Origin: Eledone cirrhosa
Taxonomy: Eukaryota
DNA: 64,000 bases
NCBI GenBank assembly: GCA_964016885.1
Contig: OZ024765.1
Span: forward strand, 23,126,001-23,190,000
Direction: 5' to 3'
The position numbers and the translations under genes were made by a program. The notes below the pieces were generated by a model. It saw only the letters and a program-made list of their open reading frames with translations, had not been told where the DNA came from and ran no database searches. Shown here in pieces: positions 8,678 through 28,555 of this stretch (the first letter of the stretch is position 1; each line of letters starts with the position of its first letter).

Positions 8678-9341
8678 TAATAGGATATGTGTTCCTTCAC
8701 GCACAAGGCGCTAAGGGACGCATGTATTGTCCAACCAAATGCCAATGTGGTTCAATGGCAGGTTAATAAATTAACGAGCCAGAACATATATAAACAAGGT
8801 TTAGCAAGGTAAAGTCAATTTTTTAAAATTTATTTTGAAACTTTTTCATTATTTGCTAAACCTTGTTTATATATGTTCTGGCTCGTTAATTTATTAACCT
8901 GCCATTGAACCACACTGGCATTTGGTTGGACAATACATGCGTCCCTTAGCGCCTTGTGCGTGAAGGAGCACATATCCTATTATTACTACTCTCCTCTACT
9001 GTTGAGACAAATTGGGTCGCTCCGACTGCTGCTAGTGATAGTTGCGGCCGGTTTGACCTACCTCCCTCTGCCTCTATCTTTACTTTGGCCCTTGAAAAAA
9101 TTGTTTCTTCATCCACTCTCATCCCAGGAACAGTTTTGATAGCGCTAGTTCGTAATTTAAATTCAAGAATTTTATATTCTTCGAATGAAAAGAACCTTCT
9201 GACGAGAATCTTTCTTTGCAACGAAGGCCGTATGGTCTCCGTTTATTTTTGGGATTCGAAACCGATCGGTAAAGGTAACTATAGTAGGTAAAGTCAATTT
9301 TTTAAAATTTATTTTGAAACTTTTTCATTATTTGTTAAACC
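8678..9341 (+). mobile_element. Retrozyme-like element: 479-bp monomer plus inverted left arm
   Basis: 8807-8862 is directly repeated at 9286-9341 (period 479). 8678-8807 is the reverse complement of 8852-8981. Contains a hammerhead; (TA)n on the left. Confidence 0.75.
9194..9276 (+). ncRNA. Type I hammerhead ribozyme (enlarged helix II)
   Basis: acctt-CTGACGA-[gaatct...gggattc, 52 nt]-GAAA-ccgatcgg-TA-aaggt. Palindromic helix III; predicted cleavage after 9271. Confidence 0.85.
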
Positions 9342-9347
9342 TATATA

Positions 9348-10216
9348 CAGGGTGCGGACGATATTTGTTCGCAATTTTCAACTGCTAATTTTATGCAAAT
9401 TTTTTTTACTTCCGTTGTCACTCTTGTCTTCATAAAAACAGTGACTATATTTCCATTATTTATTTTCAGAATAATTGATTATGAATAATTTTGAACCTCC
9501 AAATTTGTGGAAGAGACACGGAGTTCTTCTTGGAATCCGCGCCGGGAGGACAAATAAGGAAATTTCAGACTTTCTCCGCTTCAGCAGGAGAATGGTGTCT
9601 CATCCAAAGATGTGCCCAGAGTTATGCAGACAAAGTTTCCAGTGACAACATTGGTCTTAGGTGTCGTCAGCAGTCAAGGTGACGTCATGCCACCTCACTT
9701 CTTCCCTGAGGGCCTCAAGCTGAACACCGATGGCTACATCCTCGTTCTAAGCGAGGTAGTAAAGCCCTGGATCGACCAGGTAACTGCAGGTAGGCCGTAC
9801 GTGTGGCAGCAAGACTCAGCGCACTGCCATACCAGCCGAAAGACCCAAGCCTGGCTGTCAGAGAACTTCATCGACCACACTTCACCTGACATCTGGCCTC
9901 CCAGCTCGCCTGCCTGCGACCCCTTCAAACTTCTTTGTGTGGGGCGCAGTGGGACGAGACACCAACAGATCTGGCTGCAATACGAAAGACGATCTGAAGG
10001 CCAGGATCACAAGTGCTAAGTCGGGGGACAGTGAAGAAGGCCTGTAGCAGGTTCCGAGGCCGTCATCAAAGCCAATGGCGGGTTTATCGAGTGAGATTGA
10101 AAGAACAAGTCATGAAGACAAACTGACCCAAGTTTGATAAATATATCTTAAAAAATAAAACTACTGTCTTATTTTTTCTTAGACTAATCTTGCGAACAAA
10201 TATCGTCCTCACCCTG
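9348..10216 (+). mobile_element. Internally deleted Tc1/mariner-superfamily (maT-like) DNA transposon
   Basis: About 27-bp TIRs cagggtg(c/a)ggacgatatttgttcgcaa with TA flanks. Transposase remnant 9612-10019 (VWQQDSAHCH...WPPSSP), frameshifted. Confidence 0.9.
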
Positions 10217-25900: not shown

Positions 25901-27840
25901 GTATATATATATATATGTATATATATATATATATATGTATGTATATATATATATATGTATGTATATATATATATATGTATGTATGTATATATATATATAT
26001 GTATGTATGTATATATATGTATGTATGTATATATATGTATGTATATATATATATATATATATATATGTATATATATGTATGTATATATATATATATATAT
26101 ATATATATATATGTATGTATATATATGTATGTATATATATGTATGTATGTATATATATGTATGTATGTATGTATGTATGTATATATATATATATATGTAT
26201 GTATATGTATGTATGTATGTATATATATATATGTATGTATGTATATATATGTATGTATGTATGTATATATATATGTATGTATGTATATATATGTATGTAT
26301 GTATGTATATATATATATGTATGTATGTATATGTATGTATGTATGTATATATATATATGTATGTATGTATATATATATATGTATGTATGTATATATATAT
26401 ATGTATGTATGTATATATATATATGTATGTATGTATATATATATATATATGTATGTATGTATATATATTATATATATGTATGTATGTATATGTATATATA
26501 TATATATATATGTATGTATATGTATATATATATGTATGTATATATATATATATATATATATGTATGTATATGTATATGTATATATATATATATATATGTA
26601 TGTATATGTATATGTATATATATATATATATATGTATGTATGTATATGTATATATATATGTATGTATGTATATGTATATATTATATGTATGTATGTATGT
26701 ATATATATATATGTATGTATATATATATATATATGTATGTATGTATATATATATATATATTATGTATATATATATAGTATATGTATATATATATGTATGT
26801 ATATATATATGTATGTATATATATATGTATGTATATATATATGTATGTATATATATATATGTATATATATATTGTATATATATATGTATGTATATATATA
26901 TATATATATATATGTATGTATATATATATATATGTATGTATATGTATGTATGTATGTATATATGTATGTATGTATATATATATATATGTATGTATGTATA
27001 TATATATATATGTATGTATGTATATATATATATATGTATGTATGTATATATATATGTATGTATGTATATATATATGTATGTATGTATATATATATATATA
27101 TATATGTATGTATGTATATATATATATATGTATGTATATATATATATATGTATGTATGTATATATATATATATGTATGTATGTATATATATATATATGTA
27201 TGTATGTATATATATATATATGTATGTATGTATATATATATATATGTATGTATGTATATATATATATATGTATGTATGTATATATATATATATGTATGTA
27301 TGTATATATATATATATGTATGTATGTATATATATATATATGTATGTATGTATATATATATATATGTATGTATGTATGTATGTATATATATATATATGTA
27401 TGTATGTATATATATGTATGTATGTATATATATATATATATATGTATGTATGTATATATATATATATATATGTATATGTATGTATATATATATATATATG
27501 TATACGTATGTATATATATGTATGTATATATATATATATATATATGTATACGTATGTATATATATGTATGTATATATATATATATATATATGTATACGTA
27601 TGTATATATATGTATGTATATATATATATATATATATGTATACGTATGTATATATATATATGTATGTATATATATATATATGTATGTATGTATGTATATA
27701 TATATATATGTATGTATATATATATATATGTATGTATGTATATATATATATATGTATGTATATGTATGTATGTATATGTATATATATATATGTATGTATG
27801 TATATGTATATATATATATATATATATGTATGTATGTATA
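22993..27840. repeat. 4.85-kb (TA/TATG)n tract
   Basis: Simple repeat; source of the IYIYMY ORFs. Confidence 0.97.
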
Positions 27841-28555
27841 TACTTTTCCCATCTTGACGTTATAGTCGCATATGTTATAGAATGCCGTTAGCTTCTTGCT
27901 AAAACAATCTCTATACCTCTCATTTATATTTATACTCGGATTCTTTTCCTAGAGTGCTTAAACTATCTGTGACTAATCCCGGTTTTTTTCATAAAAACTG
28001 TGATAATATTGCTATTTTGCTGAACTCCTTTGTAGAGTTTTTTTCAGAATGTATTTGACTGCTATTTCTTGTAAATAAACATTCACTTCCATCCTGACGT
28101 CACTAGCCCCGTTTTTTCCTCATGTGCTTTTTCATAAATACACATGAAGGCGAACTAGCCAGTTTTAGAATTCCCTTTTTCGGATTATATTACTGTGAGA
28201 GCCCTGGTTTTCTGTTGAGCTCTGCTGATGATTGAAATTCCAACCGTGACCATTTCCACTGAAAGTTTTCATGAAATAGTCTTTTAAGACTATACAGAGC
28301 ATTTGATGTTATTCCAAATTGAAGGATAAGTGTTTCAGACTTTATTTTATCATGAGTTAAAGGTCTATAGATTTTCCCTGGATTTTACTAAATTCTGAGG
28401 ATGAATTTATATCCTGATTCTCTTTTGAGATGAGTTTGAGTTATTTTTCCTAAATCTTTCGTTAACTACTTTTCCCATCTTGACGTTATAGTCGCATATG
28501 TTATAGAATGCCGTTAGCTTCTTGCTAAAACAATCTCTATACCTCTCATTTATAT
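27841..28555 (+). mobile_element. Retrozyme-like element: 626-bp monomer with 89-bp terminal redundancy
   Basis: 27841-27929 = 28467-28555. Contains a hammerhead; embedded in (TA)n. Confidence 0.78.
28219..28300 (+). ncRNA. Type I hammerhead ribozyme (stable helix III, enlarged helix II)
   Basis: gctctg-CTGATGA-[t-tgaaa...tttca-t, 41 nt]-GAAA-tagtctt-tt-aagacta-TA-cagagc. Predicted cleavage after 28294. Confidence 0.85.

Follow-up and report, generated by a model that had tools for sequence, protein, structure and literature searches.

Insertion ends of non-coding hammerhead repeats in Eledone cirrhosa point to copying by Penelope-like elements

How do repeats that carry a ribozyme motif and encode no protein spread through a genome? 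The question is raised by a stretch of 64,000 nucleotides from Eledone cirrhosa (assembly GCA_964016885.1, contig OZ024765.1, positions 23,126,001 to 23,190,000; hereafter the window, numbered from its first letter), in which four different repeats, named families A to D, each bear a hammerhead. An earlier inspection of the letters alone (the sequence-only reading) took them for a system resembling retrozymes and named Penelope-like elements (PLEs) of the same window as candidate helpers. The analysis described here favors, with a probability of roughly 0.8, four independent non-coding hammerhead retroelement families, that is, retrozymes of the kind without long terminal repeats (non-LTR retrozymes), which would be copied in trans by PLE proteins through a full cycle of transcription, cleavage, circularization, and insertion. 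The less demanding claim, that A-D are non-autonomous elements of retrozyme type copied by PLEs, is very likely correct.

The units are unrelated to one another, with no significant mutual similarity (best pairwise E 0.09), and the positions and periods first assigned to them hold. Family A lies at 8677-9342 on the plus strand (period 479 bp, an ORF-free repeat with a hammerhead), B at 11135-11967 on the minus strand (533 bp), C at 15561-18502 on the plus strand (467 bp), and D at 27841-28555 on the plus strand (626 bp). Their longest ATG-started frames (58, 83, 30, and 45 amino acids in A, B, C, and D) leave none with a credible open reading frame, and Pfam gives no match for a 112-amino acid frame of A or for a 59-amino acid part of the B frame. 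The GC content is 0.34-0.39. LTRs are absent, the ends being permuted unit positions; primer-binding sites and polypurine tracts were not searched separately. Predicted circular folds are 58-65% paired, with z-scores of -2.4, -3.8, -8.2, and -3.7 for A-D against only 20 mononucleotide shuffles, a weak control.

Each unit contains one type I hammerhead. The descriptor used combines C[UC]GANGA, GAAA, and UH with helices I-III and permits one unpaired position at the base of helix II; over both strands of the window it finds 11 matches, one each in A, B, and D, six in C, and two in a PLE. A strict descriptor missed B, D, and the PLE, and the relaxed one was composed with those motifs already known, so the shuffle control outweighs the match itself: dinucleotide shuffles yield 0 matches in 1000 for every unit. 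Hammerhead A (9194-9276, plus strand, predicted cut 9271/9272) has a palindromic helix III and loop. Hammerhead B (11190-11269, minus strand) has a C.A opposition at the base of helix II and a palindromic helix III, and hammerhead D (28219-28300, plus strand, predicted cut 28294/28295) has a U.U at the base of helix II and a long, stable helix III. The C motif is represented by 17228-17272 on the plus strand, with further plus copies at 16761-16805, 17695-17739, and 18162-18206 and minus copies at 15784-15828 and 16251-16295. In A, B, and C, helix III is a short palindrome, which is the form said to act when dimeric (PMC4209133); the U.U in helix II of D has a counterpart in an axolotl family (PMC7229834). 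Rfam assigns C to Hammerhead_HH9 (37.7 bits, E 6e-6), short of the gathering score of 52, and holds no hammerhead match for A, B, or D among the matches listed (150 of 384). Rfam microRNA matches were set aside as products of inverted arms and TA repeats.

The helices keep pairing through compensatory changes, which argues for selection on the hammerhead fold. Across five B-like sequences 98.5% of cells are paired and two helix II pairs are changed on both sides; 5 of 500 shuffles do as well, slid controls reach 35-52%, and the sequences are few and related. These relatives, 74-80% identical to B, also keep both of the end sites described below. Compensatory changes occur in helices I and II among C variants and C-like families. 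In the PLE, the motifs of the window copy lie at 29627-29673 (minus) and 33387-33433 (plus); every intact copy found has the core CCGAAGA, in which C replaces the usual U of position 4, and there is an A.G at the base of helix II. A diverged PLE copy in locus L057 has preserved the loop-3 palindrome by a double change.

Searches of the 3.0-Gb genome with the units returned 2016, 1976, 324, and 2379 first-look candidates for A, B, C, and D. Scoring was confined to the best candidates (40, 40, 37, and 40); the counts are lower bounds, and long copies are favored. The full-length matches are 95-100% identical, lie on many chromosomes with a constant period, and often form arrays; with hundreds to thousands of first-look candidates, the families are multi-copy rather than single-copy. 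Insertions were mapped for A (40), B (41), C (33, 2 of them incomplete), D (40), and the PLE (16, 1 incomplete). All four families form head-to-tail tandems of units some hundreds of base pairs long in which at least two consecutive units bear hammerheads. The longest arrays reach 12.2, 4.9, 15.5, and 12.6 units in A-D, and insertions range from about 0.45 to 15.5 units, so the tandem arrangement noticed at the outset is real whereas a length slightly over one unit is not a rule of any family. Most ends adjoin (TA)n: 78 of 80 in A, 62 of 82 in B, 47 of 63 in C, 71 of 80 in D, and 25 of 31 in the PLE. The placement in or beside (TA)n thus holds for most ends and fails at the right end of the window A copy, where a short TA run gives way to a DNA-transposon-like element. 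The latter (9347-10219), presumably Tc1/mariner-like, has terminal inverted repeats of ~27 bp and a transposase-like fragment. At the level of sequence, A-D display every tested feature of non-LTR retrozymes (a hammerhead per unit, tandem units, no coding capacity, dispersal, GC under 50%), which supports the retrozyme-like assignment, and self-cleavage and circular RNA are predicted.

It is the ends of the insertions that connect these families with PLEs. Published marks of PLEs include a 5' copy in inverted orientation and a tail at one end (PMC8557442, PMC3846280), and variable 5' truncation with a fixed 3' end is seen in A-D. Sense 5' ends are scattered round the unit, whereas sense 3' ends fall at two sites, S1 and S2, at unit positions 68 and 177 in A, 45 and ~164 in B, and 323-328 and 392-397 in C. 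The two sites are 74-119 nt apart in A-C and 164 nt apart in the PLE. In D, 35 of 40 ends fall at 87-92 and two at 286. Altogether, sense 3' ends lie at S1 or S2 in 55 of 60 cases in A, 61 of 65 in B, 48 of 50 in C, 37 of 40 in D, and 28 of 29 in the PLE. The main ends are AT-rich; each unit nonetheless holds 8-14 ATAT/TATA positions that mostly go unused as ends, so the choice of end is not simple microhomology.

Head-to-head inversion with a tail, as in PLEs, characterizes A-C only: 20 of 40 insertions are inverted in A, 24 of 41 in B, and 19 of 31 in C. Whenever both outer ends of such an insertion are canonical, S1 and S2 are each used once (15/15 in A, 21/21 in B, 17/17 in C, 53/53 in total), and the same one-of-each rule holds in inverted PLE copies (13/13; each family p <= 1.2e-4 against 0.5). 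Three more S1/S2 inversions were found in sub-unit A copies among 16 extra loci. The A, B, and C copies of the window are themselves two-arm insertions inverted head to head, not a plain unit plus excess, an anatomy overlooked by the sequence-only reading. In B, the minus arm (11135-11709) ends at S1 (position 42-45) and the plus arm (11710-11967) at S2 (~160-164). In C, the minus arm (15561-16715, 2.5 units) ends at S1 (323-328) and the plus arm (16714-18502, 3.8 units) at S2 (397), and a private variant is common to both arms. Both copies fit the rule. In A, the minus arm (8677-8807) ends at S2 (position 177), and the plus arm (8807-9342, 1.1 units) halts ~11 nt before S1 (position 68). The D copy of 1.14 units is uninverted, ends 3' at S1 (87-92), and has TA tracts on both sides.

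Both arms of an inverted insertion appear to derive from one template, because they share private variants. Where a rare variant is fixed in at least two units of one arm, the opposite arm has it too at 22 of 25 sites (A 6/7, B 5/7, C 11/11) and at 33 of 33 sites in the PLE; in other insertions the mean frequency of such variants is 1-7%. As sites of the same insertion are not independent, sharing was also counted by insertion, and is seen in 15 of 16 in A-C. A single RNA molecule, a single source locus, or later gene conversion could each suffice to produce this sharing. Median divergence is lower within than between insertions (A 0.13 versus 1.3%, B 1.2 versus 1.9%, C 0.19 versus 0.64%, D 0.39 versus 0.65%).

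The candidate helper is a PLE at 29584-33638 on the plus strand of the window, a rearranged and broken copy whose minus arm ends at S1 (29584) and whose plus arm ends at S2 (~33638-33640). It is in three pieces, with a reverse transcriptase (RT) segment (30935-31460) inverted between the two arms, and thus represents a double rearrangement. Intact units elsewhere measure 4199 bp from hammerhead to hammerhead, with a frame that begins 296 nt past the hammerhead start. The RT fragment gave 34,345 first-look candidates, a figure that covers all related PLE sequence; 150 scored matches are 96-100% identical, and dozens lie within open frames of 832 codons. A natural copy of 819 amino acids (locus L151) has RWR at 38, DKT at 123, CxCX5C at 678, CxxC at 776, and CxH at 804. 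As RWK-like, DKT, CxCX5C, CxxC, and CxH motifs are given for the Hydra clade, whose insertions lie in (TA)n (PMC8557442), this PLE has the motif set, the hammerhead, and the target of that clade. It differs from the description there in its unit length (4.2 kb versus under 3 kb) and in its GFKTF motif, where GxKF/Y is described as not conserved. Between its RT and endonuclease parts, the intact protein contains a stretch rich in asparagine that resembles inserts described in rotifer Penelope elements. A remnant of a second, diverged PLE endonuclease (32-43% identity) lies at 45213-45534 on the minus strand.

The shared end pattern, 53/53 in A-C and 13/13 in the PLE, supports the proposal that PLEs serve as helpers and provides junction-level evidence that points to Penelope machinery copying the RNAs of A-C. 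The likeliest type of helper for A, B, and C is a TA-targeting PLE of the Hydra clade, represented by the 29584-33638 family. A different PLE family may serve D, in which a single end dominates and inversions are almost absent.

Several results weigh against this account. The sample is biased to long copies and includes a few near-duplicate loci (two B copies in L199; D in L117 and L118). Twelve inversions have one non-canonical end (A 5, B 3, C 2, D 1, PLE 1) and stand outside the 53 and 13, and only 1 of 40 D insertions is inverted head to head. Three variant sites in two insertions (L026, L043) differ between arms. The predicted cut has left no genomic scar, as 5' ends are not enriched within 3 nt of it (A 2/60, C 0/52, D 1/42); the B count (0/66) is confounded by a poly-T tract. 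Minimum-energy folding leaves helix II of hammerhead A unformed, and local folding z-scores are weak for A, B, and D (-0.2 to -1.0). Of nine Xenopus retrozyme dimers, eight failed to cleave in vitro (10.64898/2026.07.22.740005). On the side of the helper, the PLE protein has no Pfam or PDB match, its clade being assigned from motifs alone; other PLE families, at 31-62% protein identity, are present in the flanks; and A-D share no sequence similarity with the 3' region of the PLE family examined, so the pairing follows from the end pattern alone.

Could the elements be something else altogether? Chance motifs in satellite DNA, or mobilization by long interspersed elements (LINEs), might be considered, given Rfam scores below the gathering threshold and the plentiful LINE fragments of the window. 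This is scarcely credible in view of the shuffle control, the confinement of descriptor matches to A-D and the PLE, the helix covariation, the lack of a poly-A or LINE 3' tail, and the two-site end rule held in common with the PLE. A more substantial competitor treats A-D as solo pseudo-LTRs (pLTRs) or 5'-truncated ends of coding PLEs that were expanded locally into minisatellites by unequal crossing-over, an origin model discussed in a preprint (10.64898/2026.07.22.740005). Ends and inversions like those of PLE copies, the abundance of truncated PLE ends, and the partial variants and irregular spacing of some C arrays would all fit, and candidates left unscored might conceal a parent PLE. Local expansion, though, does not readily account for an identical unit-to-unit junction and period, found for each family in dozens of insertions that are independent and spread over different chromosomes, or for inversions in which both arms are often multimeric. 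At 16 extra A/B loci chosen by a short S1-S2 segment, S2 is followed by TA or the next unit in 16 of 16, at the point where a parent PLE would enter its frame. PLE protein matches in the flanks fall outside the unit-matching stretches, which mostly end at TA. No sampled copy of A-D contains a joined RT plus GIY-YIG frame, and an incomplete census of ~1 Mb of loci revealed no parent PLE. The sampled copies are therefore not solo pLTRs, because none continues into a coding frame, and the suspicion that the monomers would always be attached to Penelope frames fails. This competitor is accordingly very improbable; an ancestral pLTR origin, or a rare or diverged parent PLE, is possible, and present dependence on a pLTR is largely refuted for the sampled copies.

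Two further proposals accept PLE copying and differ in how it proceeds. In one, an array already in place is transcribed into linear RNA of several units, which is copied without being cleaved first; the hammerhead would be vestigial or would cut only late, and circles would not be required. The lack of a 5'-end pile-up at the cut site would fit, single arms traverse up to 10 hammerheads in series, some variants occur in only some of the units of an array (A 3, B 11, C 27, D 5 sites), and uncleaved RNA is the dominant substrate of the anole PLE in vitro (PMC11167929), which again speaks against the favored cycle. Many variants are, however, fixed in all units of an insertion (A 67, B 43, C 20, D 12 sites), and the same private variants run through as many as 15 units (L186), the direct product expected of a single circle. 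Without circles or local expansion, moreover, array length could only shrink over successive rounds, and the compensatory changes in the helices imply selection on the fold. A linear template is thus unlikely, and a circular one is somewhat favored. The other proposal derives the inverted arm from fold-back or self-priming on an antisense template (PMC3846280), or the tail from endonuclease resolution (PMC8557442), instead of two-strand priming. Either origin is published for PLEs and would likewise give shared private variants. Both are harder to reconcile with the arm lengths (42-6167 nt for S1 arms, 35-5897 nt for S2 arms), since the longer arm may be of either kind and could not be templated by a short one, or with short arms that nevertheless terminate precisely at the opposite fixed site. 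Insertions that are not inverted end at S1 or S2 (11:5 in B, 5:7 in C), so both are usable starts, and the anole PLE extends both strands in vitro (PMC11167929). S2 arms extend past S1 in 49 of 55 A-C cases, which, with either arm able to be the longer, argues against plain fold-back and against twin priming in the style of L1. Twin priming with adjacent breakpoints, hinted at by the window A copy, was for the same reason rejected as a general rule. An origin by fold-back or resolution is on balance improbable.

The favored cycle would begin with transcription of a tandem copy. Hammerheads would then cut, in A-C probably in dimeric form and in D perhaps as a monomer, and a host ligase would circularize the products, as proposed for related elements (PMC7229834, PMC4209133). 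A PLE protein with RT and endonuclease activity would bind the RNA, nick (TA)n, and prime at S1 or S2 downstream of the hammerhead; ends and TA target are observed, and the protein is the putative link between them. Repeated copying round the unit, stopping at scattered positions, would yield the arrays, 5' ends, and homogeneity that are seen, with a circle the more plausible template than a concatemer. Often both nicked strands may be primed, at S1 on one strand and at S2 on the other, from the same template, and the cDNAs joined head to head, as the one-of-each rule and the shared private variants suggest. Two PLE copies (L152, L160) start 0 and 6 nt past the predicted hammerhead cut, which is only suggestive of cleaved RNA sometimes serving as template.

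A stricter version of the last steps is tentative, and on present evidence doubtful: a dimer of the PLE RT might load one RNA so that its two active sites are occupied by S1 and S2, respectively, prime both (TA)n strands, and let both subunits circle the same RNA with strand displacement. Within this dimer scheme the two-site loading signal would be structural, because unrelated non-coding circles show no detectable likeness to the helper. If true, it would jointly explain the PLE tail, the PLE inversion, and the spread of retrozymes, with natural substrates of 470-530 nt.

More than four such families reside in the genome, because C-like, B-like, and other-hammerhead families were found in TA flanks. 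Among these further hammerhead repeats are C-like units that recur every ~433 or ~422 bp and show covariation in helix I, as well as one family with a wholly different hammerhead; the loci concerned are L109:2300-3200, L114:2300-3628, L165:1000-1800, L016:3150-3210, and L035. Several families gather in TA tracts: at C10:37226760-37241026 (L116-L118, L179), C and D are adjacent in one tract, and the pair is present twice ~12 kb apart. As to expression, two runs guessed to be RNA (share 0.05 each) gave 0 contigs on the D unit and permit no conclusion; contigs of two other organisms cover parts of the D unit, including part of the hammerhead region, and none spans it.

The rest of the window is also rich in repeats. 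Homogeneous minisatellites lie at 53-1267 (61 bp), 3897-4616 (72 bp), 46581-47747 (45 bp), and 48574-57406 (48 bp, ~185 copies), and none of the four matches the hammerhead descriptor. Nor does a ~460-bp non-coding element present between TA tracts in two copies (20149-20940 and 22385-22990, 96% identical) and a diverged partial third. Six SINE-like copies of ~345 bp with a trinucleotide-repeat end occur at 2967-3328, 8061-8375, 10327-10671, 19102-19447, 36575-36908, and 39475-39822, and LINE fragments at 12129-13894, 13931-14937, 34805-38883, 40910-44318, and 58162-61795.

The retrozyme class, its mussel members, and its link to PLEs are already published (PMC7229834; 10.64898/2026.07.22.740005). 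A-D belong to this known class, and what is new is a line of evidence on how retrozymes move. Until now the case for their mobilization by PLEs was built on co-occurrence and, in frogs, on homology to pLTRs, and how tandem and inverted insertions and the microsatellite bias arise is listed as an open question by PLE authors (PMC8557442). The young non-coding families described here carry a countable PLE signature, with one end per fixed site and one template for both arms. Many intact helper frames, together with substrates of ~500 nt, make the rolling-circle and two-strand-priming models testable in the existing in vitro PLE assay. No account of the one-of-each rule or of families A-D was found in the literature searched, although supplements, Repbase, and subscription papers may contain them. 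Among the titles listed, none concerns octopus hammerhead ribozymes, and the main text of an Octopus vulgaris repeat annotation contains 0 occurrences of "ribozyme" or "retrozyme" (PMC13282606).

Non-LTR retrozymes, as described in PMC7229834 and 10.64898/2026.07.22.740005, resemble A-D in having non-coding tandem units, a single type I hammerhead per unit, a GC content under 50%, insertions from monomers to multimers, many families per genome, and co-resident PLEs. Axolotl families share the palindromic helix III or the U.U at the base of helix II. The view that the present units are longer than typical is weak: at 467-626 bp they exceed the 170-400 nt of PMC7229834 but lie within the 51-972 bp given elsewhere, where the mean in ray-finned fish is 650 (10.64898/2026.07.22.740005). 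Circular RNAs are established for animal retrozymes of this kind, whereas in A-D cleavage and circles are predicted. In Xenopus, 24 of 57 families match Repbase elements (10.64898/2026.07.22.740005), whereas no pLTR homology was found for A-D. The main texts of these two sources describe no inverted insertions, tails, or fixed 3' ends of retrozymes.

Among PLEs, those of the Hydra clade and others that bear an endonuclease share with A-D the hammerhead, partial tandems, (TA)n targets, a tail on one end, and a 5'-truncated copy inverted head to head (PMC8557442, PMC3846280, PMC4209133). A-D differ in lacking an RT or endonuclease frame. The tails of A-C measure 74-119 nt, and those of the co-resident PLE 164, versus the 30-40 bp described, and the one-of-each rule is strict here whereas those accounts call the tail optional or often one-ended. 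Chlamys elements such as MRC1, putatively non-autonomous, are PLE partners with pLTRs and multicopy head-to-tail insertions (PMC8557442). They resemble the 3' end of their helper, and most Chlamys lack canonical hammerheads, whereas A-D have hammerheads and no detected likeness to the helper examined. The closest biochemical parallel is the purified Poseidon PLE of the anole, which nicks and extends both strands and has two internal RNA start sites that delimit the tail (PMC11167929). Those starts lie downstream of the hammerhead and match genomic ends, the targets are AT-rich, and a dimer is predicted. The account of that enzyme gives no strand difference in start site and no homology between start site and target; in E. 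cirrhosa, by contrast, the two ends of an A-C insertion always differ when canonical, and all the main ends lie on short AT-rich runs that could pair with (TA)n.

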